Part shown: in pieces, positions 6,643-45,100 of the stretch | Layout: every line of letters starts with the position of its first letter | Position numbering within the stretch: position 1 is the first letter of the stretch | DNA from: Raillietiella orientalis | Taxonomy: Eukaryota | Direction: 5' to 3' | NCBI GenBank assembly: GCA_036172245.1 | Contig: JAYWIR010000006.1 | Location: 2,480,001-2,544,000, forward strand | DNA: 64,000 nucleotides | Translations under genes and position numbers: made by a program | The notes under the pieces: generated by a model | What the model saw: the letters and a program-made list of their open reading frames with translations, nothing else | Database searches by the model: none | What the model was told of the DNA's origin: nothing

Positions 6643-6720
6643 CTTTTCGAAAACAACAGAGAAACAAATTTACTAACCTGATCTGCTGCATCTTTACATG
6701 TATAAAGAATGAAACTTCAC

Positions 6721-6846
6721 CTGAAAATACCATGAACAATCCTGCGAACATGATTACGAAAACGGCCATCAACTTGCTAACAGTGAAAATCTTCTGGATC
6801 CTAGTCGACAGTTTCAAGCTCCAACAATTGTTGAAAGTTACCAACG
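6721..6846 (-). CDS. SLC7A9: SLC7 transporter coding exon 4
   Basis: (A)LVTFNNCWSLKLSTRIQKIFTVSKLMAVFVIMFAGLFMVFS; matches the TFxNCxSVK..TRxQxxFT..K pattern; ctaag acceptor and gtgaag donor; 126 bp. Confidence 0.95.
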
Positions 6847-9389
6847 CTTAGATGAGATGAATTTAATAGGTTTGTCGTGTACAAAGAAAAGCATACTTCT
6901 TCCATCTATCACTTAACAATCAGCATCATGTACAAGGCGCGCTGCTCGCGTCAGCAGCACGCCACTTGCTTACATCCCGACACAAAATGTACATGCCAAA
7001 AAAAAAAAAAAAGGGAAAATTCGACGAACGTTGCGAATTGATGGTGCACCCGGCAAGGGACTTTCTGCGCATGAATCGGGAACATCGCGAAACTCCTGAG
7101 AGCGCCAACTCGCCGGAGTCGGGGACGTCGCGAGGCCACGCGCTCGGATCCCTCCCTCACGATAGCGAGGATGGAAGACGCGAGATCGACCACAAGCGGA
7201 GGCTCAACAGACGTCCAGAAGAGTGCTCGGAGTCGGAGTAACTTTCGGAAGCAAAGAACGAGGAAAGTCGGCGCTAAGACAAGATGCATCGCGGCATGCT
7301 TTTTGTTGTTGTTGCTGTTGTTGATGATGAAGACGATTTGGTGCTGCTGCTACGGAAATCTCCGATCTGGAAGCAAAATGCAAGAACCATTATTTTATGG
7401 ATCGCATTCCCGGAGAAGGGCGAAAAGGAGGCAAGCGATCCCGCTACACAAGCTTCAGAATTCTGGAATCGAGACGGAATCGATAGACAGCATTCTTCGG
7501 GCCGGTCTGGACACGTCCAAACAAAAGAGCTCGAGTTTGAGGTACTTGCCGAGGTCTCTGAGCAAAGTAATCAGCGTGAAGTGAAGAGTCAGCTGAGAAG
7601 GTGAGACCTCCACGCGAGACACTGCAAAACAAGGGGATTCATCGATGGCCAAAAACCCCCAACGCCTCGCCCTCTCTTAATCATCAAACGAACCAATCGC
7701 AAACGTCAACAGCCCCCGTGTACGGCACACGTTCTAAGAAACACCCTATTTGGTCGTCTTCTTGAAAAGACGGACTCCGCCTCCACCGCCGGGTTGTGCT
7801 TCCGGAGCGGAATTCCCGCTCTTCGAAACGGTAATACGCGTAGAGGTTCCCGAAGGGCGGAAGTCCGGCTGGTGACCGACCACACCACGCAGACAACCAC
7901 ACAGGACGCTCTCCGTAAAGCGACGATAAAGTAGCACGCACCAGAGGTGATCACCAAACTCTCAGGTGGGTCTCGGCACCTGCTGATCTTGGCGTTCGGT
8001 TCCGCCCACGTGCCGTGAAACAAACAAACAGAATTGAAACGAAATAGAATGCCGTAAAACCTCGCCATTTGGGCGCGCAGGCCTCCAGATTGCTACGAAA
8101 CACTCCCGATGATTTCCACCGCCGGTAACGAAGGTCATTTCGGTTAACGCCTTGTCCGTTGCACGAGGCACTTAGGGGCAAGGGTGAAGGGCCACCTTTG
8201 AGGAGGAAAGCTCCCCGGTACAAGATCACAGGGGTTCGAGTTGCTGTCTCTTTAACCGTGCGAAGGTGACGGATTCCTTTCCCGGATGTTTGTTGATGTT
8301 CAGACCGGTGCCGTCCAAGAAATCACAAGAGAAACGCTGTCGACGAATTCCTAGATCTGGTTCCCGAACAGGCGGAAATTTCCGGTTCGAGGAATCGGAC
8401 ACCCGACAGCTCGCAGAGGTCCACGGCGCCCCCCCTCTCCAAGTTGAAGATGCCATCTGGAGCCTCGCAAGCACTGCATGGAGGCCACCGAGGCGCGTCC
8501 GAGACCTCTTGCCTACAGCGACCCGGAACACGTGCATCTTTGGAAGGAAAGAGCTGCTCCGCGTGCGTTGCACCTTGAGCAAAGGATCTGGGGTGCGCTT
8601 GTCGCTCGTTTCGATAAGTGGGCTGGATTTCGCCAACAGCGAGCCCATCCTCTGCAGCGATCACAAATTTCTAATAAGGAGCAGCTCAATGTGTTTTGCC
8701 TCCTTCCTGAGAGGAATTTCGATCTCCCCGTCCCTCGAATAAACGGGACAGGAAATCACCCGAAAGAGAGCGTGTCAAGGCAACCAACATGATGGATTTA
8801 TCGACCGAAAGTTAAAGGAACCCTTCCCAGCCACAATGCAAATGTGCTCGATTTTTCTCAAGAGAATTCGCCAAGAGTGTGGAGCCATCCCCTCGTAGAA
8901 AGGCTCGGCCAGAAGCTTCCTGCTTCCCCGTTTTCGCTTTGTCCGCTTCGTGCCGTGGAGCGCTAGTGCAAACCATAATGGCAAATTGGATTCACCACAC
9001 ACGAGGAAATGTCGAAACGCAGTAAAAATCAAGGAAGCGGGGGAAGGCTTCCCTCCGGACGGACGGCACTGGTGTGTGTGCGATGTGTGTGTGTTTTTTT
9101 CTTTGCCCCGATAAGTGGAAGAGGCTGAGCGGAAGAGGAAGCCTCCGGAGAACTTGGGTTCCTGTCATGAAATGTCGCGGCAATCTGTGGTTAAGGAAGA
9201 ACTCGTTCCGGGAGTGCGGGTCCCTCAAGTGCAACGGGCGGCGTGCAAGAAGCACAGCCGCCACCGGTTCAGCACGCGGTAGAACTGTTAAAACAAAGAG
9301 AGTCCTCCTTCACTTCCGAGCGATGCAATGGGCAAATTTTGCAAAGAAAAACTGAAGGTACGGAAGACAAGTTTCTATGCAGCACATAC

Positions 9390-9632
9390 CTATACAAAGA
9401 ACGCATAATATTTTCACTTGGAGATCCTGGTCACAAGCGTGGCTGCTGATCCCTAGGACAACGTACTCGGCGAACGTGAGGCAGACAATGGCCAAGGTCG
9501 CTGATTTCACCAGAAATACGCTGATCCAGGCTATCATGTATGCAGGAAAAGGACCGAAAGCTGCAACGCAGTAGCTGTATTCTCCTCCGGAAAGAGGTAT
9601 TGCTAGTCCCAATTCGACATAGCACAAGGACG
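9390..9632 (-). CDS. SLC7A9: SLC7 transporter coding exon 3
   Basis: (A)SLCYVELGLAIPLSGGEYSYCVAAFGPFPAYMIAWISVFLVKSATLAIVCLTFAEYVVLGISSHACDQDLQVKILCVLCI; LCYxELG..SGGEYxY motif; ttttcag acceptor and gtatg donor; 243 bp, phase 1-1. Confidence 0.96.
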
Positions 9633-9889
9633 CTGAAAATCGACACTTTTTTTTGAAAAACAAACAAACTTTAAAACACATCATTCTCAATCAACGACTG
9701 ATTGGTGGTCACACACGCTGGGGGCTAAGCGAAATTTGCGCGAGAAAACATTCAGCTTATCGCAACGCGATACGCTGAATCCGCTGTGGAAACATCGGAA
9801 GACATGGATCGAAAGTTTCATGTCTTTCGTATCCGAAGCGCTTAGGGCGGTTGGTCAGCGTTCCTTCGAAAGCTGCACGGAGGGCTTAC

Positions 9890-9991
9890 CGAGCATGCAG
9901 AAGATCCCGCAGAGTGGCCATATGATGAGCGTCAGGGCGACGGACCCAGTCCTTTCCAAAACGGACTTGGCAGACACGAAAATTCCCGAAC
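9890..9991 (-). CDS. SLC7A9: SLC7 transporter coding exon 2
   Basis: (G)SGIFVSAKSVLERTGSVALTLIIWPLCGIFCML; contains the GSGIF signature; ttgcag acceptor and gtaag donor; 102 bp, phase 1-1. Confidence 0.95.
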
Positions 9992-12900
9992 CTGCAATGC
10001 ACCACAAAAATTCAGATCCCATGGGCAGAAGCCGGGAGATTCCCGCAAGCACGGTCCGCACCTAGCGACAGGTCGGTGGTCTTGAGAAGGAGGGTCCACT
10101 TTTAACAGGAGTGTGATTAAAGATTAGCAGGGGTTCTGTGGACCTCTGGTGAAGAGTGTGCGATCGAGATAAATTCAAGGAACGGACACCGTTCGCTGGT
10201 GGTGACGTCATCACTCACCGTACACCTCTCTCGCGATGCGATCGCCGCCGGAAAGCACACCCATTCCTTTCGACATCACCGCGGACAGGAACGCAGGTTT
10301 CGCGTTGAAGAGCACATAGCGAGAGGTCACGAGAAAAACTCAAGCGGGAAAGCATCAAGGAGGGAAAGCCTTTTCACTTTTCCCGGGAACAAGCAGTCCT
10401 TAAACGGGAGCTGAATCCAGGCATCCTAAGAGGCAAGCTCTCAGGAAAAGCGGCAAGGATCTGTGCGAACAGAGGACGACATTCCAAGCTTCTCTACATG
10501 ACTCTTTCTTGCCAAAAACACCGCAGAGGAACTCTGAGACCACGAATAACATTCTCGTAAGGACTCGCGCCAGTGATATCTCACGCATTATAGGAAGTGG
10601 ACGATCCAAACAAGGAAAATCGGGCGGATCTCATATCGTACCACGTGTTCTGTTTCGCTGCCTAATTCTAAACATCTAGAAACAAGATGATTTTGACCTC
10701 TCAGTTGTGCCCGACGCTCGACTACTACTGCTAAATTCCAAATGCCGATCCTTGATTCCCATAGACAAGTTTCAAAGCTGTGGCAAACTTCGGACCACTG
10801 TTCGATAAGTACGCGTTTGCCATGGAAACGCGTATTGCTAAGTGTGTTTGCGAAACCGCGGAAACTGACTGGAACAGCAGGACGTGGCCGAATGAATCAA
10901 CAGTACACGAGGTGACGAAATCGCAATTGAATTAAAGAAGGATGAGAGGAGCGACAAAACCCTCAACTGGGATGTTAGCCCCCACGAAACGCGCCTGACA
11001 GTGGCAGACAGTGTCATCGGAAAACGGTTCCCCTGATGTTGCCAAAGAATCATCCGTGGTAGTGGGCACGGGTCATGCCTGGCACTGGGAATTCTGCGTC
11101 CGTCCCATCGTACTTGGACCCACTTTCGACTGCTTCGTAAACTTTCAAGCTTTGGGGGGACAAGCAGCAGTGGCGCAGAGGAAAGTCAGACAACAACCTT
11201 GACCAGGGACTGGCTCGTAAGAAATAAAGCAAAGCGTGCAATGCAGGGAGGCAGTGGGTTGGTAAAGGAGCTGGAGATCGACTGTGAGCGTGCTGCCAGG
11301 GAGCGAACTCTTTACAGTCCATCAAAAACTTCAAAAGCAAAGAAGAAAAGAGCATTTCTTTTTTTTTTCAAGAGCCGAGAAAAAGCTCTCTCTTTGGCAT
11401 GGATTAGGGAGCACAAGATTGATGGAAAAAGCAAATAGGGAGTGGCAAGCTGAGGGACGCTACTACGGAAAAGGTGCCCGAGAATACCTCAGTACGAGTA
11501 TGGCATCCTGCTGCATCATAAGATGTGCATAATCAGAAGAGAAACCATTTTTTATGACGTTCATGGACTCTGCAGGAGTTTTTACTTGTCAAGATCAGAG
11601 CAGCGTAAGAAAAATCAATAAGAAAAAACCGTCCTTCGATGCGGAAGCTTTGAGCATGCTTAAGATTTGTGTGAAAGATTCGCATGTCGGAAATCTGAAT
11701 GATCTTACAAATCAAAGTGCACTTGAGAGCCCAAATGATGTGTCCTCGCCATTTGGGCGGCTGCGACGTACAATCTTCTGGGCTTCTTAAGCACTGCTCC
11801 TATTATTATAATTTTTTTATTCTTTTGAACCTTGGTTTCGCCCGTGGTTCACGACCATGAAATTCTCATCTTCCTTTCTCATATCCTTCCATCTTATATC
11901 CTTGTCGAAGAGATGTAATCCCTTGCTCACAAATAATCTGACCCTTTGACTTGAACTGGGACGCTTCTAAACTACTGCGCCCCGCTTTTGCATCTTTTGT
12001 GTTTACAGGTCACCTTGACCACCGGCATTGTCCTTCCTTCACTGTTCCCATGGCATCTCGCAGAAATGAAGCCAACCTTTATCATCTGGCGTACCTTGGA
12101 AGCGAGCTCTCCCTCTCATCTGGTATCCCAAGAGAGCAGTACCGAGTGGTCGCCCAACCACTCAGGGACGGTTCCTCCAGCACGACTTCATCGATCCTCA
12201 GCTCGGCATTTTTTTTATTACTTTCATTCCTCGAACGTCACATAAATCGAATAAGGAAAATTCTTGAAGGCAGAAGCGAGTCTGCTGGGCTCAAGAGGTG
12301 ACATAATCCCCGAAACTGACGCAAGGAAAGGCTGCTTAGGCTATGCTTCTCTGGTTTCAAGATCGGCCTCCCCTGATGTGAAGAATGGCATTCGATGAAC
12401 GTCTTATTCTGTCTCTTCAAACTCGAAAACGGAACGTTCATTCCCACTTTTTTTTTTTCTTCCCCCCTCCCCCCCCTCTCCCCCGATAAACTTTGGAATC
12501 CGTTTTCGTTGAGCAGTTATCTTGGGTCGCGAAGCCGCTCCTGTTAACACATTTCTTGGTTACGTATACCTCGTTAAGAACCCAACGTTTTGAGTCTTTC
12601 ACCACTCACCTCGTTTTTGACTGAACGCCTGAACATGGCCAAATTTACCTATGCATACATACGTATACGACTCTGCTCGCCGTAAGACTTATGGTAACCC
12701 TGAATTTTCGGCTGTGAGGAAGAAATGTTGAAAAAACTCGTAAGCAAGTACCACCGCAAGTACGGATACGAATTCATACGAGGCCATCCGAAAGAAGAAG
12801 TTCGTCTGAAAGAATATGAGGACGCTCAAGTTCTTGCCGATGAATAAAGGAAGCAAGGAGAGAACGACAAGTAGGCAACCCATTCAGCTCACTCACACGG

Positions 12901-15900
12901 CCACCGATTTTCTCAGATGATTGACCTGATTTCCGTTATCCCTAGGTTCCGATGCTTTTCCGCTTGGCCTTGTCTAAGCACACCAACACCACACTACACA
13001 AGCGACTACTGTTGGACGAAAACACCAAAGCTTCGATTTGTGACTCGTAAACGTGCAAAGTGTGCTTTATTCGCTGTGCACGCAAGCACGTGCCCACAGG
13101 GAAAAGCAAAAAAGAGTCGGAAACAAATAACGTCATACTTCAGAATTCGCCCTCTTTGCAGAACTCATAAGGGATGGGAAAACACCAACCTGTATTAAGT
13201 TTAGAACACGTTATTTTTAAGATTCCCACACACCAGGAAACAAAAAGGTGTTTGAATTTTTGTGGTCTCTTGGAAACTCTGTGTTGTCTTAGGAAACAAG
13301 ATGTAAGTTGCCAAAATAAATCTTGAAGAGAGTTCGGCGGCAAAAATAGGAACCGACACTCAAGGAAGCCAAGAAAGCACATTTTTGGATTCCCAAACCC
13401 ACTAAGAGAGGGAAGCGCTATTTTAAAAAGTTTCGGACGCCACTTTATGCAAGCAGTGGAACAGAAGCATGTGGAAGAAAAAAGGAATCTAGAGATCAGA
13501 TTCGTCACAGATTGCGCATGGCTCCAGTGTGAGCATCCTCATTGCTCAAGTACTGGACATATACAACAGGAAAAGGAAAGGCCAAAACTCACTGCCTCAC
13601 TGTGCACTTCGAAAGCTCTGTCGATGTCAAAGAGCTTCTTCGACAGACGGCCAATCGTTTCTCAGAGCCGATGCAAACAAACCCGCGGTTAGTCTGAGTA
13701 ACAAGGGGTCTATCTCCAAATCGCGACTTCGGATGCCGATTTGAATCGAAGAACCTACTGGATACCCGCCCTAGTGGGCAGTGTCACCCTCATAAACTGC
13801 CGGGTGTACCACGGTGACCGAAACGGTGCAGACGTGAGCTGTGATCCGGGTTTCTCAAAGACCAATGTACCCAAGTCTCATGTTCTCTGATGAGCCAGGA
13901 TTAGAAGGACAAATTCACACTTATCATGGCAACCTTGATGTGACTGCACGGACAACCGCCATCGGGCAGTGGGATTGGGACTGTGGCAGCCAATCTGACG
14001 AGCAAAGGAACGACTGGAAGCCCGAAATCTCTTGTCTCCTTCAGAAATGCTTCCCGGTGTGAAAAGCGGCAGTCTCCACGCAGTGTTTGGAAAAAAGATG
14101 GCTGAAACACGACTAAATGAACGAATAAATACGAATTTCGGTAATTCCAATCTTAGAGGAAGCCGTCCAGTAGTTTCCTAACAAGCTGACAAGAAGCGCA
14201 CCAGTGTTTCAGCGGCTGGAAGGAATACACCGGGAAAGAGTCAGAGAGCTATGAGTGGACCGTCCCACGGTGTTCTCGTGGAAGAGAAACATGTTCGTTT
14301 TTGCGCGAGAAATGGACACAATGGGCATCCATCAAGGCGGAACCAATTTTCCTCTGCTTGTCGCTGTGTCAGACAAAACGAACATGGAACCAGAGATCAA
14401 GAATGATAACGCGAGTGATACCTCACACCCCTGAGCAATGGATCAGGAGGACCTTTCGAGGAGCGGACTAGACGGAAATGTAGGAAATGCTACCGATAAA
14501 GAAACGAAGGAGATATGCGGCATGAGTGCTAGAAATGTTAGCCACCGAACACTTAAAGTGAGAATGCGGTATGTTTTTCTTTTGGGAAATGAAATGAGTT
14601 ACTGGCATTTACAGTGTGAACCTTTCTCATCAACCCCATTGCATAGAAGGAGGTCCAGCGTGTAAAAACTGCGTTTGGATAAAAGCCCCTGAGTTGGAAA
14701 CCTTCGTTGGTTCCATCCGCTTTGTTTTTGATTTTCTTTCCAATTTGTTTGGGGAACTTTTAAATTTAAAAACGGTTCACAGGGCAACATAGTAATTACT
14801 TTATCGGCAAAGAACATTGGCAAACTTGATAGAGAGCTTACTTGGCACGTTGAAAAACGTGGTGTGTGGCACGGAGAAACCAACGGTTGCATTTTACTTT
14901 GACGAATGGTTTTCAGCCCCATCATACCTTCCCACTAATCTGCCATGCATTTTTATTTGTCCAAAATGAGATTTCGAAATTAGCAATTTCTCACGATTCG
15001 AGTAGAGGGGCAACTCGATAATACGAGAAGACAATCTGATAAACCGAAACCTAAGCAGCGTGCGCGTTAAGAACGAATAAGGAAATGCTGGGTGCGTAGG
15101 AATAACTACCATGCTACTGCCCCGGCCACATACAGGATGATGACGGGCGTTTAGAACAAGCGCTGATTAGCCCTGGGTTTAATTAAGAGGATGAGTGTGC
15201 AAGATGCAGGTCTTGTGAGCTTTCTCGGCAGCAACCCGCCGGTACCCTGAGTGCATGTCGAGGAACATTTACTTTGTAGAATCACTTTCCAATAAGACCT
15301 TGACAGTTTGATGCGATGAATTAATTAGGGGTGACCGAAGACCTTTTCGGTGGTGAACAATCTCTTCGAGTCGGAATCTTTACCACTGCTCTTATGTTTC
15401 AATAAAGAACAGTAAACTTGCAAAAAAAAAAAGAAAAAAGTATACCCAGGTGCGTACAATTTTGGAGTCGTACTAAAGATAAAAAGCATTTTTTTTTTTT
15501 CTTTCTTTTCTCAGCACCGGTCCAATTCTAGGGGTTTGGGCGTAAGGGAAATCAAAAGGCGAAAGGTTTTGAACAACAACTCCAAAGGCCACCGGAACAC
15601 GAAAAGATGACTTGTTGAATAAGAAATATGTACTTGCTAAGATATGATGAAACTTTTAGAAATGTTAAAAGGTCCACTAAAGGCAACCAAAAGACGTGGG
15701 GAAAACAAAATGGACACCTACGCCAATACCGCCAAAAACTTCCACATGTTCGAAAGCTCAACAGTAAAAATTTCCACTAGCAAAATAGAATGATTCCAAA
15801 GGAAACGCCCACGAAAAACGAGCAGCGACCATTCCTAACGGCTAGTAGAAGGAAGAATCCCACAGACGTAAGCGGAATGATAAGACGATCACTACAAAGG

Positions 15901-17404
15901 GTGGTTCATCACCCTCCATCGTGCTAGTAGAAGTTTCCACTGCGTATGACAACTTCCTTGCTTTCCAGCACTTCCAACCACATTACCTTCCAATCTCCCA
16001 AATTCCAACCACTTTCCCGACGACATGGGCCCACAGTCCTTGCTGCATCGGATACGACTTCGCTGTTGATCTGCTTGCCCGACTCCTCCACCCCTTTGCT
16101 TTTCCTCGCACCCTTAGTTTAAATGCATGCTGAGCGATGGAGACGAATCCCGAACAAACTTCGACATAGCTTGCGATGGGTGACTGCCCTGAAGTGCTGG
16201 GGATTCGAACTCTGCGCTGGACAGACACCCTCCTCCGGACCCATACCGTTCACACACGCTTCCGGTGCCATTCACCGTGGTGCACTCCTTCACTTGCTCG
16301 GGGCAGGGACGCCAAAGTCAACGACCACCCGGTTATTCGAAACGTTCATTCTGAACCAGAGAAGGTTGCTGCTCTTTTGCTGGAACAGTGAATTAACTGC
16401 TCTTTACACGCGACACCACGTTCGCTGGCGGATCCTTCAGTCCCTCAACGCGACAACGATCCCGAGTCGGATCGTTCCCATGGCAATCTCGAACTTTAGA
16501 ATTTTCGGAGAATTGCATTTTCTTGGATTTTTCCTTTTGCGCTTGATACTCGCATCACATCATCCCCGTCCACGCTGTCGCAGCTCTTTAGAGGAGTGTA
16601 CGTCACTCCCTCTGAATATTCCGATCCCCATAGGATTCGTAAGAGCTTTTAACACTCATGCACTCTTCCAGGAAATGCAATCCGCATCCAAGGCATGGGC
16701 TCGCGTTCTGATTTCCATTTTTCCCTCGTCCCGTTCCTCATGCTCATCAAAACTGGGCAAAAATACCAAAATATACATCCTTTTGATATATGCACGGTAG
16801 TGTGGTCCTAAAATACTCAAACAGCCAAAAATTTGTGTATTAGAATGAGATACGGCTCCAGGAAAAACCATGTAGAAAATAGGCAGAATAAATCGCACAG
16901 GTCTGTCCACAAATTAATGGAACTCAAGAAGGAGTATTATTACAATGAAACTAGTCATTTTGTTGCAGGAAAGAGGAATATCATAAATCTGGGAAAGACC
17001 TTTTAGACTTAGTTCCTCCAAATATCCAAAAGACCATGAGGGAAAGGTTTCAGTATTTCAATGAGCAGCTAAGAAAATAGCATCCATTACATTTAGAGAG
17101 ACATAAGCTTTCCATCACTGTGTAAGAGAAGGCTGAGATGATCATAAGAATTAGGGCGTTTTTTTCAACTGCACAAATGCAACAGTTTTTAAATAGATTT
17201 TCCAAATTCTAGCAAAAGGGTAATGTATTTTTGGTAAGATAAACTCTTTCCGGAATATCTTCTTAAAAAAAACCCTCAAAGGGAATTTTAAATCTTAACA
17301 AGGTTGCATTTTATTATTCACTGATATTTCCCACATTAATAAAACTCTGGCAGCGAGGTGATCACCTGGAATAGATGCTTTTGTCTTACAAAGAGGTTTC
17401 TTAC

Positions 17405-17486
17405 CTATAACGCAACCTGTAGTCAAGGAAATTGCACCAAATAGTCCAACACGCCTTTTTAGAGTGAGGCCCTCGGTAGATGACAT
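17405..17486 (-). CDS. SLC7A9: SLC7 (b(0,+)AT/LAT-type) amino acid transporter, first recognised coding exon
   Basis: Translates MSSTEGLTLKRRVGLFGAISLTTGCVI(G), the L(K)RxxGL...xxGxxIG start of SLC7 TM1. Ends in a gtaag donor in phase 1, matching the next exon. The frame is open upstream of the ATG to a possible acceptor near 17502, so the true start may be further up. The symbol names the closest subfamily, not proven orthology. Confidence 0.88.
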
Positions 17487-20400
17487 TAAAACAATAGAAA
17501 TCTGTGCACAGAAGGAAAACTTGTTTGTATTTTTTGTTCTTCCTCCAAACCTTTATAACTTTAGATTCTTGTTCTGAAAAAGTGGTAAAATAGAAAGCAT
17601 GTTTCATGTCAATCAAACATGTTTTTTCAATCAAATTAATGAACTGATCTTGAACATTTAACCATGCAGACACATATCACACTGCAGAATGTGACTGAAT
17701 TCTAACTTGTTCTTATGATTACATGAATTGCATTTTGAATTAATTAGATATGACAAATGCTGTTTAGCTATAATAAATAAATTACATAAGCAGTCAATAT
17801 TTTTTCTTTAACCTAGTGGCAACTAAATTTGGTGTTCCTGTGTAAAGGTGGCACTGGCATTCAAAATGTGAATCTTGAAATGATCCCTTAATTTTTCCAA
17901 GCAAGGGTGCAAAAAAAAAACGCTGTTAACAGTGCTTATCTAACTTTTTGAGCATCTCTGGGTTTTTCCTGGGAGGGCCACTATGTCAAAAAAAACTGCA
18001 AGTAATGTACAAAGCAGTGTCTCTGGGAGAGCCATTACTTTTTTCATGTTTTCTTCTTTTTTATTTTGTTTTGCAATCTCCACACCTACCTTAAATCCTC
18101 TTGATTATTCAAGGCTTTAGATCATTTAATTAGCATAACAATACAGTATACAAGCTGCTACAAAAAGACCCTTAAGAACCCTTAAGAACTTGAATTTGCA
18201 AAACTTCAAATAATTCGAATAACAGGGCTGCACTTGGACCACAGAACCAAAAAATATTCCCTGTCTAGATGCCTGGTGAATTACTTGAAAGGCTGGAAAA
18301 TTCGTGCTGGCAAGCTAGAACACTGCCTCTGATAATATCTTGGAAGGGGCGACATTTGTTTTCAAATTTTGCAAAGTTATTCTGAGATCGACCGTAGCTC
18401 AAATGAATGACCTACAATTGATTAACTTATTACTCCTCCATTTTCTCAGGGAGTACATCCTATATACAAATTTGAAATTGCTACTCCCTCTCTTTGGAGC
18501 TTCTACAGCCTCTCCACAACTGTGAATGCTGCTTTGTGGTGGAATTCTTGCACGAACACTGCGAGTACGAAGGGTGTGCTGTTGTTAGCTTTGGAGCTGC
18601 GGTTGCCCCAGTCACGCTTTTCACCTGCCATTGGTGCACCGACGTGGAATTTAAACTGAACTTCCATGGATTCGCAGGATCGACAGCTGTTCTGCACATC
18701 ACGGAGACCTCGCAGGGGCCCCCAGGACGTGCACACAGCTCTGAAGCACCCACTTGGAACACCACGCGCTGCAACCGCAGTGTGACCATCGCGAATTCGT
18801 TCAAGCCCGGGGCAAAGTCACAAACTTAAGGGTCATGGGGAAGGGGGGGGGGGGGGGAATTGCTCACGATTGCACAGCAGCCACGTGGAACGTGGTCCGG
18901 TGTTCTCCCAACTCCTCTGCAAAGCCCTCAGAATGCCCTCGGAAACGACACATTGCCCCGACACGACACACAACTACGTGTGATTGTTGCAGTCTTCGAC
19001 TCTAATTCTCCATCCCTCCAGACGGGAGAATACCTCTATAAATAGAATGCAGGTGTTTTCCATTGCGTAATCCAGAGCAGCCGAAGCAAGAACCCCCCCA
19101 AAGCTCAAGTATCTACAGGAATAGCCAAAAAAAGAAAATAGAAAGCTCCGATCAAACGACGAGTAGAGTGGTCCCACTACGATGCGCGGGTTTGTTTTTT
19201 TTTTTCCTGGTGTTCCAAGGACACATTCTGTTTTCACAGAGATGGTGGATTTAAAAGGAGCATAAAAAGTCTTAGGGCGTCTGCTTTCCTGCTGGTAGTC
19301 CTGCTGTGAAGACATCCACTTCCGCTTCTTCGGAGCGGGAGTCGGACGTGGGAGCTTTGCCTCAGTAAAAAAAAAAAAAAAAAAAAACTCAACTTTGCTA
19401 CAAACCATTGTGATGTTAGACCGGTAATCTGAGCAAAAATACATGAGAATACCATGTGATCGTACAAGATAATCGAAATTCGGATCTACCTATGCATTCC
19501 ATGTACCTTCCTGTTCCATCGAATGGAAACTTTTCCGCATTTTTTGCAGGGGTGCCTAACAACAGCAACAAAAAATTCGATTTCTTCGTTAAGCCACACT
19601 AGAGAGCTGCCAAACGCCTCAGGGAGATCAGATTCAAACATTTGAACAAGACTTCGGGTTCTTAAAATTCAAATTCAAATAGGACGCGGTCGTGCAGTGC
19701 TCCAGGAAAGTATTTATCATGATCGGCATTTGAATTCCTTCATAATTTGGGAGGTTTCATGCTCAGTAGCTATCAGTCACCTTAAACCGAATTGAATTAA
19801 CTCGAGTGATATTATGGGATGGAAGCAACGCGTTATTTAGTGGGGGATTTTTTTTTTTTTTTTTCTAGCTATAATGGAATTTATTGCCTGCACCCACATA
19901 AGTCATGAACTTGAATGAACGCTTAATTTTCCATTTTCCACATTCCAAAGTTATTGATTAATATTGATTCGTCCCGTTCGCTGTGTTCTGTCATGATTCT
20001 TTAAACATGTGCCTTCTAAAGAGGAAGGAACGAGCCTTTTTTCATTTGAAATTTCAGCAAACACTCCAACATTGCTTTTAGAAGTTGCTTTCCGTTTATT
20101 TTGAAATTATTTTCAATACGCTAATTAATTTGGAATTATAGTACTGCATTCTTTTTTTGTTTTGTTTTTTTCACCTGTGATGCTTCCTGTTTCAGGAAAA
20201 AACAACAACCATCCACTCCTCATGCAGTTGAGTGATTTTAAAATCACGACTTTCCCATGTTTCAATAAGACAAGAGCTTTTCCTGTTTTTTTTTTTTTTT
20301 TTCTTTATCATTCACACTGAATACTTGAAAAACTCATAGCAATGCATAAATATGAATCCAGAAATGTTTTAAAAATGGGGTCTTTTGTTAAAAGCCAATA

Positions 20401-26600: not shown

Positions 26601-26811
26601 CCAATCGCGTCGGGAACTCGGATTGCACCAGACGGCACCTAACTGCAGGAGAAGAACCAGGATCCAGGCATAAAACAGCAGTGGAATTAGGTGTGGAAAT
26701 TTTAGACGAAGACCAGTGGCATAAAATGATAAATTCAGACACACCACACGCGTGAAATTAAAGGATGTAGGAAGTGCGTTTCAGAAAAACTTTGGCGAGC
26801 TGAGGTCGCGT

Positions 26812-26958
26812 GAGCATGAACCACAAGACATTGAACTTACTTTGAATTCTTCAATTCAAAATTACGTTGTAGCTGCTCTTTACTCCGCTTTACTTGAAAG
26901 TGCAACAAGCGAGAATAGTGCTAGCATGGTTGCCATGGAATCAGCAAACAGAAACACT
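26812..26958 (+). pseudogene. atpG: Fragment of bacterial-type F0F1 ATP synthase gamma subunit (C-terminal region), probable nuclear Wolbachia/Rickettsiales transfer
   Basis: Translates [49 protein letters not shown], matching (Y)EP...LYxALLESxxSExxARMxAMxxAxxN of AtpG. Similarity stops abruptly on both sides; the segment is AT-rich and unspliced. The donor assignment rests on my recollection of Wolbachia AtpG ([17 protein letters not shown]) and is not search-verified. Confidence 0.8.
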
Positions 26959-27654
26959 ATGCTGGAAAGAAAGAAATGCTGAATGAACAACAGCGTTGCC
27001 TCACAATCGTCCTCGTCAAGCAGCAGTCACAACCGACTCGATTGAATTTATGGGTGGTTCGATTTGAGACGGCCTTTCCGCTTTCAGTATCTTTCTTGCG
27101 GCTTTGAATGGAGGCCTTCTTTCAGGAACGAGGCCGAAGAGCTTCTTTTTTGCAACCGGCACCACCGAACCCGAGAATGCTGTGACTTTTGTGGAATCTT
27201 CTTAGAAATTAAGGCAGTGCTTGTAAGCGCTGGTGCGTTTCTCCTTCGAGGTCTTCCTCGAACCTCTAGAAAAGTCCTCCTCCTCCTCACGGTTCCAGAC
27301 CTTCGGCTTCAAAGAACGGCTGTGAAAATAAAGTAAGGACTTTATTTCGAAGCAGGTTGGGGAAAGTTGGCCTAAATCCCCGCTTCCTCTTTATTTATCT
27401 TGGATGTGCACCGAAATACCCGACGTTGAACGATCATCCCAAACAGCCATCTCTTGTTCGCTCAGATGGGTTTTCCTTGTCATCCCATGAGTGGTCGTTC
27501 ATCCGGCTAGGGCAGATTGGAAATCAAAGATGTAATCATCTTGAGTCGGTGTATAATTGAGACCGCTGCGGGGGAAACTTTCGTGTGACGACATCGCCGT
27601 ACTGCACGTAAAAAAAAAAAGGAGGTTTTGTCGCTGTTTTTTTCCCTTCCAGCA

Positions 27655-28568
27655 TTTTTTTTCAGGTTTTTTAGGTTTTCTTTTTTTTGGTTCGCTAAGT
27701 ACCTCCAGAGTCGGTCGCGCGTCTCGAGGCGCACGTGGCTCTCTAACACTGTTCCACGTTACCCGCGGACGGTGCGTGCTATTCTTCAAGATAGGGGGGG
27801 CACCCCGGAAGGGGGGCCGCCCTATGAATCCAAAAAGGCCCAGAGTCCGTTCCTCTCACGTTTGGGGAGGGGGAATCGCACCTCCCATCCTGGTTGTCTC
27901 CGAAAGGGAACCTAGAAGGAAATCCCCTTCCTCATTCTCTCCAGAGGAACTCCCCGGGAGGGGGGTGGTCCTATCCATTTCATCTTCTCCAAAGGGAACC
28001 CGGAAAGGATCCGCTAATAGGAATTTCTTCTCCGGAGGGAACCCACAAGGGAACCGCTCCTGTTCACTCCTCTGAAGAGAACACCAAAGGGACGCTTCCG
28101 AAACTCAGAAGGGGCGCTGCAGCTTCCCGCAGAGGAATCGCTCTCGCTTGCTTCCTTGCACTCTGTGAAGAGGCGATTCGGAGAGTCCCTCCCGCAACAG
28201 GGGGGGGGTCTGCTCCTTTGAACAACTGGAGAGGTGCCTGTGAAGGTTCCTTACTCCATCTTGAAACCGAAGGGGTCCCCCCGGTGTGGGGGGTCCGCTC
28301 TTCGTTGCACGACTGGAGGGGGAACTCCCCACTCCTTTATTCCTGGGAAGACCCGAAGGTCAATTTCCAATTGTTCCGGCCTTCATCGGGGGCCTCCCGC
28401 TTAATCCACCGCCGGTGCCACGCCCGAATGACTCGGCCAACCAGCGCCGTTGCAGGAGAAACACGGAACCCAAACGACGCAGAGGCGTCAGTTTCTGCCG
28501 GAGGATTCGAACCCGCGACGCATGGTGCCACGCGCGGAAGCCTTAACCACAAACCCTCCGACGCGGGC
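27655..28568 (-). mobile_element. tRNA-headed SINE-like element, copy 1
   Basis: Minus strand starts GCCCGCGTCGGAGGGTTTGTGGTTAAGGCTTCCGCGCGTGGCACCATGCGTCGCGGGTTCGAATCC, with an A-box-like GTGGTTAAG and a B-box GGTTCGAATCC. Collinear with 37744-38470 over about 800 bp. Degenerate A-rich stretch at about 27655-27690. The 3' boundary is approximate. Confidence 0.75.
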
Positions 28569-34500: not shown

Positions 34501-34679
34501 TTATTTATCAAATAGCTAACTTCTAGTTCACTTGCAGATATGCTGCACATGACTACTGCCTGGAAATTGTCTATGGTATTGTAAGGTGGTGGATGGATCA
34601 TCCCATGTGAAAAACTACCTCTCATTTTTAAAGTGATGACACCCAGATTTCTCTTTGGTAATTAAGTTGTGCTGATACA

Positions 34680-35084
34680 ATGTCCACTGCAATGTTGAAG
34701 AGAAAGCTTGTCTTGGAAAATTATGACAGTCACCCAATCAAATGGCGGATCAGACCATGTGATATCCAGAATGATGTCTATATGGATACCTTCGTGCCAG
34801 AAATACATAAGCATATTATGCCAACCTTTCAGCAATTGTCACATACACTTGCTGACAGTAAGCAGCAGCATTTGCCCATTCATAATCAGCAAACTACTGT
34901 GGAACTTTGTAGTTTCTGTTTTATCCTTGAAGACCTGATGTTGTGCTCTTACTGTGAAAAAAGGTTATGTGGAAACTGTGCATTGTGTTGTTTCCTCTGT
35001 GAAGAGCCATTTTGCCAAAATTGTTCCCTACCACATTATGAACAGAAACTTGATTTTCGTATCTGCTTATCCTGCAACAAGTAG
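34680..35084 (+). CDS. SIVA1: Siva-like apoptosis regulatory zinc-finger protein, 134 aa, intronless CDS
   Basis: N-terminal MLKRK followed by a C-terminal Cys array CSFC...CSYCEKRLCGNCALCCFLCEEPFCQNCSLPHY...ICLSC, the Siva cysteine spacing ending in CLSC. ATG in acaATG context; AATAAA about 65 nt after the stop. Confidence 0.85.
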   Translation: MSTAMLKRKLVLENYDSHPIKWRIRPCDIQNDVYMDTFVPEIHKHIMPTFQQLSHTLADSKQQHLPIHNQQTTVELCSFCFILEDLMLCSYCEKRLCGNCALCCFLCEEPFCQNCSLPHYEQKLDFRICLSCNK

Positions 35085-36943: not shown

Positions 36944-37743
36944 AAAGAAGCATAGTAGACATGCCAACCACTTTTCATAGCACTTAATCAAAATGAATGG
37001 AGATACTCTCAGCAAGCAACGCAGCTGGCTCCCAACACATCCGTTCATTTTTCTTAAGTGATCTGCTCTGCATTGCCATGCTTACAAGTGAAACCCTTGC
37101 AAGATTTGAAATGTCCTTCTGATCGTTAAATGAAATCATAAAGGTTGTTTCAGAGCTTGGGCTAAGGATTATTTGATGGAGATCAGGATCTTTCCCGTTC
37201 CTTCTTTCAGATTGATTTCACAAGTTGATGCGCACATTTATCATACCGAGCGAGGTAATGAAGGGAAGTGTCCTTACTGTTTCGATCTTTATCCTCTTTC
37301 CTTGGGCTTCAAATAATTATTTACTTTCCGCTCACCTCCAGCCATTCACCATCACATTTTCCACCCCTGTAGACCCCCAGTTGATCCACGGCACGCGCAT
37401 TTCATTCTCGATTTCCCATTCCGAGCGGAAAATAATAAATTTCATTTTTATCACTGATTGCTTTCCTTTTTTTTTAGTGCCTCTGCCACATTCTGCTGCT
37501 TCCCCTTCCCTATCTGTTGCAGCAGAGCTTTTTGTCTCTTTACAGTCTCGTTTTGGTAACAGTCAGTAGACAAGATTCATAAAAGCCATGGTGATACCAG
37601 CCAGAGAACCGGGATAATGAGCGGGAAGTGTGACATTTCATTCCGATCCCCCTCCTTGCAGTACGTCGAACGAAAGTCTTCATAGCCGCGATTGCCTTCA
37701 CATTTGCCAACCACCACTTCTTTTCTGTCTTCGCGGTTCTTCG

Positions 37744-38470
37744 ACACGGTTCCACGCCACCCGAGGGTGAGTAATTTTTCAAGATAGGGGATATTCCGGG
37801 AGGGATCCTCCCTATGAATCCAGGAAGGACTCGGAGTCCGTTCCTCTCACGCCTGGGGAGGGATCCCCGGAAATGGAGATCACCTCCACCCTGGTTGTCT
37901 CCGAAGGGGAATCCAGAAGGGAACCTCCTTCCTTATTCTCTCCGGAGGACCCCCGGGGGGTCCGCTCCATTCTTTCTTCTCTGAAGGGAACACGGAAAGG
38001 TTCCAATCCTGGAATTTTTTCTCCGGAGGGATCCGATCCTGTTTTATAGTCCTCTGAAGAGAACCCAGAAGGTGACGCATCCGACATTCAGAAGGACGCA
38101 GCTTCCCCGAAGGGATTGGCTCGCTTCTCTGCACTCTCTGGAGAGGTGGTGGCGACACACCTACTCCACCAGTACGAAGCCGAGGGTCCCCCCGGAATGG
38201 GGGTTCGCTCCTTCACAACCGGAGGGCAGCTCCCACTCCGTGATTCCTGGAAGGACCCGGAGGTCGACTCCCATTTGTCCCGGCTCTCATCGGGGGCATC
38301 CGGTTTGAACCGCTTCCAGTGCCGCACCCGGATGAATGTAGGCCAGCCAGAGTCATCTTGTGGGGTGAACTCGAAACCCACGACGCGCCGCGTCGATTCC
38401 TTCGGAGTATTCGAACCCACGACGCATGGTGCGCGGAGACTACCGTAACCACACGGCCTCCGACGCGGGC
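37744..38470 (-). mobile_element. tRNA-headed SINE-like element, copy 2
   Basis: Minus strand starts GCCCGCGTCGGAGGCCGTGTGGTTACGGTAGTCTCCGCGCACCATGCGTCGTGGGTTCGAATACTCC. Shares the blocks TTCAAGATAGGGG, CCCTATGAATCCA, GAGTCCGTTCCTCTCACG, CCTGGTTGTCTCCGAA and TCCTCTGAAGAGAAC with copy 1. Confidence 0.75.
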
Positions 38471-39178
38471 AGAATCACTCCGTGACGCCTGAGGCTTTCG
38501 AAAAGTTCCGTGTGTACGTGAAAACACGTGACCTCATCATCTCTGCTTCGGGATAACCTTAAACCGAATGCATCTACTAACAGATAAACAGGGACTACCA
38601 CTTCTGGCTTGGTTCCTTTACTCCGGTTGGCCTGAGCAGCCGCCTCCTGCCTCGCCACAACATGTAGCCGACCATCGGGTGATTTCCAAGTCTCCCTTCT
38701 CCTGGAGATTTCACGGGGAGCAGCCGAACCTGCTCTGGCCTGCCTACGAACCTCGATCAGCAAATTGGAGACAAGCGACTGTATTGGTGATGCTGGCACG
38801 TGCTCATGAATCTAATTTATTTCATGGAATTGGCAGGGGGAGTGCTTTGTTTATCAGAGTGTCGGAACGGTGTTATCAGAGAAGGAGCTGATTGCACGGC
38901 TGTGCTTTGCTCTCATTTATCGTGCCTGATACGTTCAGGATTGATTCCTGTAATCGCGAAAGGTACGTGGACCACACGTTCACCGAAGTGAGTCGTGAGC
39001 GAGGTTTGCTTGGAACCAACGAGAGGCTCGGATTATCGATGCAAATTTCGCGGCAATTTATCTGTTAGTAGATGCATTCGGCTTAAGGTTATCCCGAAGT
39101 AGAGACGATGACGTCACGTGTTTTCACGTACACACGGAACTTTTCGGAAGCCTCAGGCGCTACGGAGTGATGCTGCCC
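38467..39178. mobile_element. MITE / non-autonomous DNA transposon with 122 bp terminal inverted repeats (possibly PIF/Harbinger-type)
   Basis: 38467-38588 is the reverse complement of 39057-39178, with 8 mismatches by manual comparison. TIRs begin GGGCAG and the right flank is TTA. The ~470 bp interior has no recognisable transposase. Confidence 0.85.
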
Positions 39179-42100
39179 TTACTGTGTACAACCGTTGATT
39201 TATTGTATTCGAAACTTTACCTAACGTTTGCCAGGTATTTAATGATCTTTGTCGGCTGGGCACGTCTCTCGCTCCCATAAAAAATTCACTTTTCAGACCG
39301 TAGTTCTATTCCCTTTATGGATGATTAGAATCCGACTGAGCGCTTTCTTTATGTTCGGAGATAACGGCGACCAGATGCTGGTTTTTCCGTGATCTCGGAG
39401 CAGCAACTTGCCGCTCTGCGATCGAGCTTCTTGAGAAGCCGCAGCATTTCAGGATGTGAGAAAGATTGAATGAGAGAGGACAGCGCTAAGAAAACAAAAT
39501 GATTATGGTAATTTCATCGCTTTCTTTCCCCTCCCTCTCAAGGCTCGGGTATTCCTGTTTCCCGGTAGACCAGTCCCAGATCTACTCCACAGCAAGGCTG
39601 AAACGAAAGCGAAGAATCACCTCAGCTATCAGCAGACCGAGCGCAGCCACCAGTAATTCTTTCGGATGGTTTACCAGTCAATCCTTACGGATGTTCCGAG
39701 ATTTCGTAGAAGAAATGCAGGAATCTGAAGAAAGCTCTAAAGGGCACGCTATTTTTCCCGAGATAACGAAAGTGTACTGACGTGAACGGGAATTTACAAG
39801 CAGGAAAAGAAACGGGGAGGGGGGAGGGAGGAGAGAAAGGAAAAAAAAAAATGGCAAGCTCGCTCTGCTGCATCTTCTCCTTTATCCTTGAAGCTTTAAG
39901 ATGACAGCAAAGCAGTGGATCGCGCTCACGGGCGAAGGACCGAGTTTTCCGTCTTGCGCATACCTTTGAGCATCCGGGATTTCTTGGAGAGTCGGCAAAC
40001 ACAAAAAATAATCGTTCGAAAGTTAATATACTCGGAATGGAAGGCTCGGGTTTTCTCTTTGCATGGAGGTATGTCGAGGGTCATCCACCTGGAAGCGTCT
40101 TGAAAAATCAAGCAATTTCGCCGTATGTGTTGAAAGCTAATTACACGAGCCCGGGCCTGGCATTCTGAATTAAAGTCTCTATTTGGCAACCCCTCGATGC
40201 AAGGCATTTGGCAAGATCGCTGGAGCTTGCAGCAGCAAGTCGTTTCTCGATCCCTGAGAATGGGAAGGAAAAACCCGAAGAGGGGAAGCCACGGCGTGCG
40301 CGACGTCGCTGCGGACTTGGGCTCGAACTGCGTCCGGATTCATCCTTGAAATCGGAGAGGTGAAGACGGGAACAAAGGAGGAAAAGGGGACACCCTTTGG
40401 TATGCGCGGAATGACGAAGAAAGAAACAAGGGAAAAAGCCGGAAGGGATTCCGGGAGCGATCCCCAGGTTGCGATTCGCAGTCCCGGGGAAACTCTGGTG
40501 CGCTTTACTTGGCAACCAGCGATCGAGAGATCCGGAGACTATTTTTAATGATTGGAGGCTAACGCCTGAGAGAAGGCTGGGATCACTCCTAAGGCCCTTT
40601 AAGATTTTACTGCAGCAGAGTGAAAGCAATAACTCGATCCCCCTGTGTACAGGTGACACTCACGGACTGCGGGATACAGGATGATGTAACTGCGTCGTGC
40701 AGCAAGGGCGGAAGGCTGTTGCAGCAAGCCACGTGGAAACGAGGGATTCGCTCTCGTGTGCGCGTGTTTTCCCCCTCGACACTTCGTGTTTTGCTTCATT
40801 TCCCGACAACGAATACCACCGCGTCCTCGACTCCACTGGCAATCGAGCGACGCTGTCGGTTCGTCCTCGTGGTTCCTCGTTTCTGCTTCCGCATCCCTGG
40901 GAGGGACGAAAGAGATGGAATCTCGGGTCCAGCCTTGAGGAAACTCGGTCTCGAGGACGACGGTTCACAGATTCCATGCAGAGTCTGTACGACGATAACT
41001 CTGATAGACGGGGAAAAGCCATCCGCGTCCTCTCTTTTTTCCCTTTTCGCAGCAAGGGATCCTCAGCTGCTGGCTTCCGTCGAAGACTGCCTCCCACAGG
41101 TTGCTTTCGGCGTGCACATCGAAGACAGCGTCTGCAGGCCTCTCCCAGTGCTGGGGGCACGGGACGAAAGATCGCAAGACACGTTGCTGCGACCTCAGCA
41201 GTGTTTCCTGCGAGTGACACCAGCGCGCCCCCGCAGGACATGCAAACCCCGGATGCTGCACGGCTTTCTCTCCTCCATTCATCTACCCAGGCACAGTGCA
41301 CGCTTGATAGTGTCACCTCTGGTAAAAGAGACTTTCAGACGTACGCGACCCTTGATATGGTCAACATTTCAAGTTTTCTGTCATTCGATAAAACAAACTT
41401 TATTTGCATTAAAAAGATGTGGCTTATGTGGTAGTGGAGTCGCGGGATGGAGTTCCGAAGAGCGTTCTTCTGTACCTGCTTTTCAGCATTTTGTATTCCT
41501 CGGCCGAAGAAATCGAGCTGAATTTACCGATCGGCCATTTTTTTTTTTGCTGGTGAAGATGCTGCACCCATTGCAACACGATTCCATTCCAATGATAAGA
41601 GAGAAGAAAAATGCAGCAGGTGACTCTGAGATTGTGGAGTGGAGGAAGGAAATCATGTCCACGATCTGGACACCATCATGAACGCTCCTGTGGAGCATGC
41701 AGACGAAAATGTGGATGAGGGTGACAGATGTTCAAAAAACTGCCAAAGTCATTGACCACTCGTTCAATTTAGCTACGGAGTGGTCAGAACGCGTCTGCCT
41801 TCCTGTTCGTGATGCTCTTCTCTCCTGAGAAGAGTACGGGAAAAGGCAATTGGTGAAGAAGTTTGAGTAAAATTTCATACTGTATCGTCATCATCATTTA
41901 CTGCATAAGCCATCATTATTTTTTACCTCTGTAATGTTACTGAATTTGCTCATTTGAGTGTAAAAATTCACAATTTACTGTTCCACAATTTGGTTTCTTT
42001 CATTTCATCATCCCCAGAAAAAAGATTCATTTTTTTTATTTTTTTTTTTTTCTCATTTCGACTACCCATCTCGACATTCTATAGAGGCGACGTTTTTAGA

Positions 42101-45100
42101 ATTTCGATTCCAGAAAAAGGTGACCGTGTCGAATGCGCACTGCGTTCCGTTCCGACACGGACGCCGCGATGGGACGGGGGGGGGTAGGAGGGAGTTTGGA
42201 AGATGCGCGCCTCCTCCCGGGCTCCGCGCGAGCGGTTGCGCAAAAACTTCTAAAGGATCGCGGGCGTAGAGGGTCGGTGCGACTCCGCATCAAAGGGAGG
42301 GAAGGAGCACCCCTCTTGTGCCGCACAGTAAACACTGCTGCGCAGCACGTTGACGCACGCCATGCCAAACAAAACGCCCGTGACTCTTCGAGATGATTTA
42401 CGCGTTCTTATTTACATCCAGACGGATGCCAAACCTCGGGAACACTGAGAGACAGGAGCATCGGGGACTCCGTTTTCCAATGCCAAAAGGGTTGTTTTCG
42501 AATGGGGGTGCGCGAGAATTCCAAACTCGGGGAAGCGGCCCATCACTTCCGATAACATCCCGACCTTCCTCCGGACCCTGGCCTCGAACGGGAAGATGGT
42601 TCTCGTTCGGAATCTTTTTTACTCCCGGCATCACGCGCGTTCCGATGAATCACCGAGTCGGAGGCGGTGATAATCGTTCCAAAGGAACTGCGTTCGACCC
42701 GGTGGAAAATTGGGAATGCGCACTTATCGACGCACGCTTCCAGGAAACGATCTTCGCTTTCCGGTGGCTGCTTTGATGGACTCCAGCTTGTCCGCCCTCT
42801 TAATCCCGTAGTAGGTTCTGCTGCTATTTATAGGAGTGATTTTCCAGCACGCACGGCGACAAAACGACTGGATCCGGGCAGTCATCACCACCTCCATGCC
42901 GCAAACTTCGAATCGAGGACGATCTCAGCTGCAAGACACGGATGGACCACCCCTCGAATGATCCGTAGCGTCGTAAGATGCCCTCCTCATCGACCCCAAA
43001 CCCGTCCCTCACTGGCGCGGGGTCCAAGGAAAAAAACTTTTTTCGAATATTTCGCTAACGTTGCTGAAGCTGCCGCCCTGCCCCTCCCCTTTAGATCGGC
43101 ACTTTACTCTGATGGAACCGTTTGACGGAATCAGAACGGTCCATCCAGGTACAGAGACGTCAGCCTCCACAATAGGCATCTGATTCTCTGACAGACTTGC
43201 AGGTCACGTCCATTCTTAGGTTGTGTGTTGAGCCGGCGTTTGATGGTAAGGTGACTGCCGGCTGCAGAGATGCGAAACGGCAAAGGCGTACGGACACCGT
43301 GGAACGTGGAAGACAAAACGGGAGCGGACCAAAGCGCAGGAAGATGAGTGGAGGGGGTCCGTGGGGCAAAAAGCTTTGGGAGAGTGAAATGCGGATCTCT
43401 TTGCAGAAACGCAGGTTGCCTGGGAGCGGCATGGAAAGTCAACGACTACTTGCGGATTTGAGACGAAGCGCTGCTGAACTACGAGGGGGCCAAAAACACG
43501 TGAAACACTTCCATGCCACCACGGCTTCGTACACAAGATGGTCTTTTGGCTCTTCAGTGAAGATCGTTCTGCTCGATCCGCATTTATTGTTTCTTGTGCA
43601 ACTGTTTAGCTCGTCGTCTTAGTAGCTCAACAGCACCGTATGGCACCACAAAGAATCCCACAGTTGAGAATAGCAATGGGATGTAAGAATCAGAACATTG
43701 CAGAGCTCCCACCTGAGTTGTCGTCTTTGAATGCCCTAAAAGCGCATTTGACCTGTTGAGCGAGTCATTTCCTTTAACAAAGTCCACCCGTGGGCGCGTC
43801 AATTAAAATTGGCGAAAACGTATATGTATACGTCAAACGCACAGCATATTGTCCATTTCAGTGAAAGAGAAAAAAAAACATTATTCATGAAAATTTCCTT
43901 GTTGTACAGAAAATAAGAAACTTCATACATAAGAAGAAGAAAAAAAACTCATAAGAAATCGGTTATCTTTGGTCATGAGGGCGTTCACGAACGAGGCGCG
44001 TCGCTGTCTTCTATTGAAGATGATTTTGACCCCATTCTGTGTTTTTGCCAGTGTATGTACAGAAATTCCAGATGTATCCAGGTTGACTTTCGCACAAGGC
44101 AAAAAACTTCATGCCCAAGCGGCTCCTTTCAGAAGGTATCTACTGCTTCCAAGACAATCGCCCTTTCCATGGCAACAAGGATTCATCAACACACATGCCT
44201 TGTTTGGATGTTTTTTTCTCCCCAAGCAGTTGCAATTTTGGAAGTTCTGCTTCCTGAAGTCACGTTTTGGTCATCTGAACCAACTTGCAAGGCAGTGAAA
44301 ATCTGTGATGCGACATCACGTTGCTGAAGAGGAAAGGAGTGGAGGATATTCTTTCCTTCTTCGAGGAATGCAGATCAAGGTTCCGACAATCCCTTGCAGT
44401 ATGAATATTGAGGTGAAACACATTCCGTTTCCGTGTTGTTTCTTGGATGCCAACTTCTCATCCTTCATCGTTTCCTCAAAGAATGAACTTCCACATATTG
44501 CCTTGCGTACAAATCAGTCCGATTAGGGATAGCAGTTTCTTGTCCAAAAATTTATACCAGTGAAGAAGCGAGCACTTCTTCCTTGCTTTTCTAGGTACAC
44601 TGACTTGTTGACCAGGCATCCCAGGGGGAAAAAAAAACGAAATCACCGAAAAATTACATCTTGCACGGATCACTCTTTGCCGAAACTGATCATTTGCAGC
44701 TTTAATCGAGGAAAATCATTACTTCCCTCAATTCGAGCTTCAATTGTGCAAGAAGTATGTAAAAAGAAAAAGACAGAAGAATTTTTTGTGTGGTTGGCCC
44801 ACCTTACAGCACTTCAAAGACGTCTTGATAAGAAATTAATGGGGCGAAATAATAAATACACAAACAAATGTTTTAACTTTTTACCAAAATCTCGTATTTT
44901 GATAGCAGGGCGTAATTTTTTTTTTTTTTTTTTTTGGGGGGGGGGGAACACCCGCGTACATATTCGTCAAACGCACCACGGCGGCGCCATTGCGAAATTT
45001 GTATACATGCGTCGCACTCGCTCAACAGGTTAAAGGCCACATCTCAGTATCACGGGAGGCTGTGCGACGTGAGACGATCAGGGAAAGATTAGCAAGAAAC

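Follow-up and report, generated by a model that had tools for sequence, protein, structure and literature searches.

Here, we describe four short, dead pieces of Wolbachia chromosomal DNA in animal nuclear DNA, that is, nuclear Wolbachia transfers (nuwts), a reading to which we give a probability of nearly nine in ten. The pieces lie in a 64-kb stretch of DNA (the window, meaning the whole stretch analysed; features in Table 1), originate from Wolbachia, form a mosaic, are inactivated and have decayed towards higher GC content, and the same window holds a eukaryotic gene. The case is one of ordinary, old, non-functional transfer from Wolbachia to its host, of a kind that has been described many times.

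Table 1. Coordinates of the Wolbachia-derived fragments and of host features in the window.
Feature	Position	Strand	Remarks
SLC7-type (Y+L / b0,+) amino-acid transporter gene, intron-split	4380-10001	-	tblastn with animal SLC7, five ordered exons
SLC7-type exons	10001-9888, 9633-9376, 6847-6542, 5197-5042, 4514-4380	-	
Fragment A: ~38 codons from the 3' end of Wolbachia ligA (NAD-dependent DNA ligase) and ~10 nt past the stop	26637..26770	+	
Filler between fragments A and B	26771..26808	.	38 bp; GC 50%
Fragment B: 3' ~240 nt of Wolbachia atpG	26809..27061	+	Pfam, tblastn, blastn, alignments, tree
~840-bp repeat, copy 3' of fragments A and B	27734-28568		Same orientation as second copy
Fragment C: piece of Wolbachia topA, residues ~83-112	37435..37516	-	
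Fragment D: piece of Wolbachia COX1-family membrane protein gene	37523..37646	-	
~840-bp repeat, copy 3' of fragments C and D	37732-38470		Same orientation as first copy

Identity and extent of the atpG fragment

The initial annotation reported a 49-codon stretch (26812-26958) that reads as ATP synthase gamma-subunit sequence, and translation, Pfam, phmmer and blastn all agree with this. An 85-codon stop-to-stop frame (26725-26982, 85 aa) spans part of the atpG fragment and matches Pfam PF00231 (ATP-synt gamma; E 1.6e-10, with 41.6 bits where the cut-off is 39.9) at profile positions 203-252 of 285. Wolbachia AtpG proteins used as tblastn queries yield two linked HSPs in frames 1 and 2 of the window, which for P0016 fall at 26812-26958 (frame 1, 79.6% of 49 residues) and 26993-27061 (frame 2, 65.2% of 23 residues), and together extend to residue 284 of 287. 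The frame changes within the fragment because two insertions, of 11 bp (26959-26969) and 2 bp (26989-26990), both relative to every Wolbachia sequence aligned, shift the reading. By blastn, 29 of 33 fetched Wolbachia and Anaplasma atpG loci match 26811-27061 with 68-81.5% identity, and match nowhere else in the window; against Wolbachia atpG the significance is E 2e-62. The atpG stretch is real, far beyond chance.

The extent and setting first given for the fragment need revision. It had been described as about 150 bp long, isolated and flanked by unrelated sequence; the atpG homology runs on 3' to 27061 in another frame, a ligA fragment lies 38 bp upstream, and two more Wolbachia fragments are found at 37435-37646. 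A working gene would be an open frame of ~287-290 codons, the full length in Wolbachia, and what is present is codons ~206-286 only. These are split between two frames and lack a start codon; the homology ends near 27061, so that ~4 terminal codons and the stop codon are absent. An Rfam search of the window returned no matches, and an exact 33-nt pattern across the 11-bp insertion had no matches in metagenome contigs.

The best relatives found by phmmer among 5.8 billion proteins are Wolbachia AtpG (72-80% identity, 66-67 bits, E 5e-13). In the protein search, which was restricted to longer proteins and gathers its candidates via common 5-residue words, thereby favouring close relatives, 116 candidates gave 74 matches, and the named ones among these 74 are all Wolbachia AtpG, a 'Rickettsiales' MAG, or arthropod records with the same 287-290-aa bacterial-type protein, at 61-80% identity. 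The arthropod records bearing this bacterial-type AtpG are from Trichonephila, Glossina, Callosobruchus and Parnassius, and atpG itself is present in insert-bearing host records (P0026, P0029 and P0070). A maximum-likelihood DNA tree was built over 237 columns from the window fragment and the atpG tails of 29 Wolbachia and 3 Anaplasma. The branch splitting the 29 Wolbachia and the window from the 3 Anaplasma has support of 100/100, and the window fragment adjoins two Wolbachia loci, L001 and L002 (94/80, a node not starred), on an end branch of 0.18 against a median of 0.06. Over the same columns it is 84.8% identical to L002, 83.5% to L001 and 66.7-82.3% to the other 27 Wolbachia. On these matches and this tree, we judge that the atpG fragment derives from Wolbachia and branches inside the genus, in line with the Wolbachia-like character given to it in the initial annotation.

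That annotation had also set a test beforehand, whether eukaryotic ATP5F1C or Rickettsiales AtpG would be the best match, and Wolbachia AtpG wins, with animal gamma at ~20 bits. It is virtually excluded that the fragment comes from the mitochondrial ATP synthase gamma gene of the host itself (ATP5F1C), as an exon or a processed pseudogene: the two belong to the same family (PF00231) and the aligned region is conserved in all gamma subunits, but in a comparison of the frame with all solved structures, animal mitochondrial gamma chains, including the bovine one, reach 19.6-20.2 bits (E 0.007-0.012) and the top-scoring chain of any kind 27.9 bits, whereas Wolbachia AtpG scores 66-67 bits. The ~80% DNA identity to Wolbachia atpG and three more bacterial-only gene pieces beside the fragment also argue against the host gene, and a mitochondrial gamma gene or pseudogene of an animal is excluded by the protein matches, blastn, the tree and the structure-chain scores alike.

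Further Wolbachia fragments and the surrounding host DNA

The window DNA was compared with 10 Wolbachia genomes reached through the fetched loci (five, then five more), a comparison that pieces shorter than ~50 bp, or pieces from accessory DNA absent in those 10 genomes, would escape. The four fragments are each matched in 5-8 of the 10 genomes. Fragment A, matched by DNA search in 8 of the 10, is identical at 87/99 nt (88%) to L047 and at 109/134 (81%) to L046; the Wolbachia ORFs that it matches are LigA (NF005932, E 1.5e-169 and 2.2e-175), and in the fragment the ligA stop comes two codons early. Fragment C is 71/87 identical (82%, 6 gap columns) to L036 and L051, in an ORF for topoisomerase I (TIGR01051, E 1.2e-237), and its translation passes through several frame changes. 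Fragment D is identical at 101/117 positions (86%) to L045 and at 100/119 (84%) to L037, whose ORFs of 430-434 aa match PF00115 (E 2.5e-11 and 3.6e-11) and no NCBIfam model, and it has an in-frame stop (W>*) and a conserved H changed to P. Separately, in one of the Wolbachia genomes (G002) the ligA 3' end occurs twice: the additional copy (L038:1453-1552) is outside any long ORF and adjoins an ORF for a reverse transcriptase/maturase of a group II intron (TIGR04416, E 1.1e-121).

Fragments A and B are spaced by 38 bp and fragments C and D by 6 bp, with the topA/COX1-like pair 10.4 kb downstream of atpG. In the complete genome G001, the four source loci lie at 1.330, 0.838, 1.293 and 0.139 Mb and are thus unlinked. 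The chromosome of G001 (1,389,053 nt, 34.9% GC) was run by blastn and tblastx against the entire window, and no bacterial match beyond the four fragments was found; the 38-bp filler likewise has no match to it by either program. Comparison of 1-20000 and 40001-60000 with 5 Wolbachia genomes revealed no further pieces.

The DNA around the fragments is that of an animal. The only Pfam AA_permease_2 matches come from 2 of 291 frames of at least 90 aa, both on the minus strand (9313-9690, E 1.6e-10; 6542-6847, E 3.5e-4), and belong to the SLC7-type gene, for an exon of which the best named relatives are animal (sea cucumber and Hydra, 38-46% identity). Against 1.84 billion representatives, phmmer with one SLC7 exon returned identities of at most 60%, over part of the exon, and no match reached E <=1e-30; in its nearest protein-atlas clusters the commonest phylum is Arthropoda, a weak indication counted from 1 and 8 members of known phylum. 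Also on the minus strand, tblastn weakly aligns 17322-17483 and 17404-17676 with the N-terminal region of SLC7 proteins (E 8e-5 to 1e-3); they overlap a frame that Pfam matches weakly to Condensin2nSMC (E 0.0011), and may be another exon or a chance match. Within one assembly, the fragments adjoin non-bacterial flanks and share the window with an intron-split animal gene. They appear to sit in non-coding DNA: of the 188 frames of 45-89 aa at 21-40.5 kb, 150 were scanned with Pfam, and the atpG frame alone was matched.

GC content along the window varies from 36% to 66%, and CpG is not depleted. Between the two Wolbachia clusters, frame 34662-35081 (+) has a sub-threshold Pfam match to Siva (E 2.9e-4; 21 bits, cut-off 26.2) and no homologue in the word-based protein search. 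A block of 61-66% GC at 46000-56000 has long open frames in all six frames (up to 596 aa) with no Pfam match, which are probably a by-product of composition. On the minus strand, 18977-19489 gives a weak Pfam match to AGH (androgenic gland hormone; E 0.0053), of which about one by chance is expected among 291 frames.

Could the fragments be an artefact, with reads of live Wolbachia mis-joined to host contigs? We regard such an assembly chimera or contamination as very improbable. Physical continuity is seen in one assembly alone, and sequencing projects on arthropods and nematodes often contain Wolbachia reads, as described in PMC9894559, but a mis-joined live genome is expected to give long, collinear, intact, AT-rich blocks. 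The pieces seen here measure 82-253 bp, are 81-88% identical to living genomes, are frameshifted, stop-bearing and GC-shifted, and come from four unlinked loci, and the rest of the 64 kb is without match to the G001 chromosome. The pieces do not belong to a living bacterial genome: they stem from four unlinked loci, with frameshifts, stops and decay towards higher GC.

Downstream of each cluster is one copy of a ~840-bp repeat. The two copies share their orientation, lie ~10 kb apart and are 67% identical over 853 columns; the repeat has 50-57% GC and no Pfam match in its frames, and its presence near both clusters could be any of coincidence, a transposon or an old duplication. The repeat raises an explanation that is compatible with the Wolbachia origin, namely that the fragments were carried by a host repeat or segmental duplication and became multi-copy after a single capture. 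We consider this unlikely. The divergence between the repeat copies is of similar order to the decay of the fragments, but the clusters hold different Wolbachia genes and have no mutual similarity outside the repeat, the distance from cluster to repeat is 672 bp in one case and 85 bp in the other, and neither cluster is flanked by terminal inverted or direct repeats, none of which were found on searching around either. Apart from (TG)10, no tandem repeats were found in the window. The end of the second repeat copy is also exactly where an inverted repeat begins (38467-38588 / 39057-39178), with 122-nt arms that are 93% complementary and 468 nt between them, resembling a foldback or MITE-like element.

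Decay, age and donor

Pooled over all four fragments, 42 of 359 sites (11.7%) that are invariant in at least five Wolbachia genomes are changed in the window, or ~0.12 substitutions per site at these invariant positions. The changes run towards the host composition, with 35 AT>GC among 242 AT sites vs 5 GC>AT among 117 GC sites (Fisher p 0.004), and the fragments have a GC content of 42.0%, against 34-38% in the homologous Wolbachia DNA and 44-57% in the flanks. This excess of AT>GC changes is what a long neutral stay in a GC-richer genome would predict. The single-base departures pointed out in the initial annotation are borne out, CAT standing for the TAT of Wolbachia YEYEP and AGC for the AGA/AGG of ARM, and these two replacements (Y>H and R>S) are included in the 12 atpG states of the window that are found in none of the 29 Wolbachia. 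By codon position these states number 5/4/3, a count biased to positions 1 and 2, as only 2 third positions are invariant among Wolbachia. Differences of the atpG fragment from L002 fall on the three codon positions as 12/9/15, against an expected 9.6/5.4/21.1 (p 0.09, a weak test of neutrality).

With their frameshifts, premature stop and replacements at invariant sites, the pieces are, as far as their sequence can tell, dead and encode nothing functional. Lateral transfer followed by decay, as the initial annotation had proposed, is upheld by these lesions together with the intron-split eukaryotic gene in the window. That a remnant of atpG or ligA has been domesticated, and is expressed within a host transcript or as a small protein, is highly improbable. 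The 85-codon frame covers part of the fragment, and transcription of some nuwts in other hosts is described in PMC3849323, but no start codon precedes the homology in this frame, which terminates within the region of the 11-bp insertion, conserved residues are replaced, and no host exon recognisable by Pfam lies nearby (in 291 frames of at least 90 aa window-wide, and in the scanned frames of 45-89 aa).

The change rates of the four fragments (10.4, 12.2, 6.9 and 14.6%) are homogeneous by a chi-square test of little power (p 0.54), and as rates are compatible with one age. The neutral rate of the host is taken to lie in an assumed range of 1e-9 to 1e-8 per site per year. Under that assumption, the inserts may have an age on the order of 10 to 100 million years.

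With the fragments concatenated, identity of the window to five Wolbachia genomes is 77.6-81.5%, and that of those genomes to each other 82.5-87.5%. The nearest genome is G007 overall and for fragments A and B; G001 and G008 are nearest for C, and G008 for D. The donor falls inside the sampled diversity of the genus, with no supergroup assigned.

An unsampled, divergent Wolbachia, or a close relative within the Anaplasmataceae, could have given rise to recent inserts, most of the 15-22% difference from known genomes then being donor divergence rather than age in the host. In favour of this, no sampled genome is nearest throughout, the best identities are only 81-88%, and Wolbachia genomes differ mutually by 12.5-17.5% over the same columns. 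We hold it to be quite unlikely, as the changed 11.7% of sites are invariant among 5-8 Wolbachia genomes and 35 of the 42 changes are AT>GC, first and second codon positions are altered, as are residues that all 29 Wolbachia share, and two frameshifting insertions, one stop and several frame changes occur within ~590 nt. Such damage is not expected of a living lineage under selection.

Origin, significance and comparison with known systems

We therefore return to nuclear Wolbachia transfers as the preferred reading, for which we infer the mechanism of integration, a single episode, the age and a germ-line route as follows. Wolbachia lysed in germ-line cells would have left DNA broken into pieces of 80-250 bp, and unlinked pieces would have been joined end to end or via short filler, ligA with atpG (38 bp) and topA with the COX1-like gene (6 bp). 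The joined pieces would then have been captured when a chromosome break was repaired by non-homologous end joining, in the manner of numts, and would since have been drifting neutrally. Such drift is suggested because substitutions at invariant sites, the AT>GC shift towards host composition, indels, frameshifts and stops are all found. Capture of organelle DNA at double-strand breaks via non-homologous end joining is described in PMC3798261; for the pieces in the window, end joining is suggested by their arrangement alone. An RNA-mediated route, as discussed for nematodes in PMC3849323, is possible.

As the nearest Wolbachia genome is not the same for every piece, a single donor and a single event are not established. 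We offer only tentatively, and with the odds well against it, the proposal that all four pieces stem from one ancient shattered insertion, joined during one repair event that dates back ~0.12 substitutions per site, in a host lineage now without (known) Wolbachia; were it true, the pieces would be a marker of palaeosymbiosis.

The pieces mark a past, possibly present, infection of the host lineage by Wolbachia, and fossils of this kind reveal, and may date, former infection. For annotators, 'bacterial' matches in this assembly are host DNA and not contamination, and the mosaic of unlinked pieces adds a small case of endosymbiont DNA captured in numt-like fashion. Wolbachia is known from arthropod and nematode hosts, and if the host here lay outside these groups, the reading as one ancient insertion would extend the historical host range. 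Between about 20% and 33% of genome projects on arthropods and nematodes are reported to show lateral gene transfer from Wolbachia (PMC4299567, PMC3798261).

The transfers of Brugia malayi, as described in PMC3849323, are also short gene fragments (mostly 100-200 bp there, 82-253 bp here), mostly degenerate and scattered; the host DNA here, in contrast, has ~50% GC and is not assigned to nematodes. The large Wolbachia inserts known from Callosobruchus chinensis and Glossina are long, collinear and often near-identical. Those described for Drosophila ananassae in PMC4299567 share the donor genus with the present case but are likewise long, collinear and often near-identical, whereas the pieces here are tiny, scrambled and old. 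Closer in condition are the 'genomic fossils' of Dictyocaulus viviparus, which the account in PMC4046930 presents as short, co-assembled with host genes, marked by frameshifts and stops, and neutral relics of infection, although there nearly 1 Mb is involved and the absence of live infection is proven, and here there are four pieces in 64 kb. In arrangement, the pieces resemble numts and nupts as described in PMC3798261, in which short unlinked pieces form a mosaic with little or no filler and then decay neutrally, with the differences that the source here is a bacterial endosymbiont rather than an organelle and that end joining is only a proposed route here.
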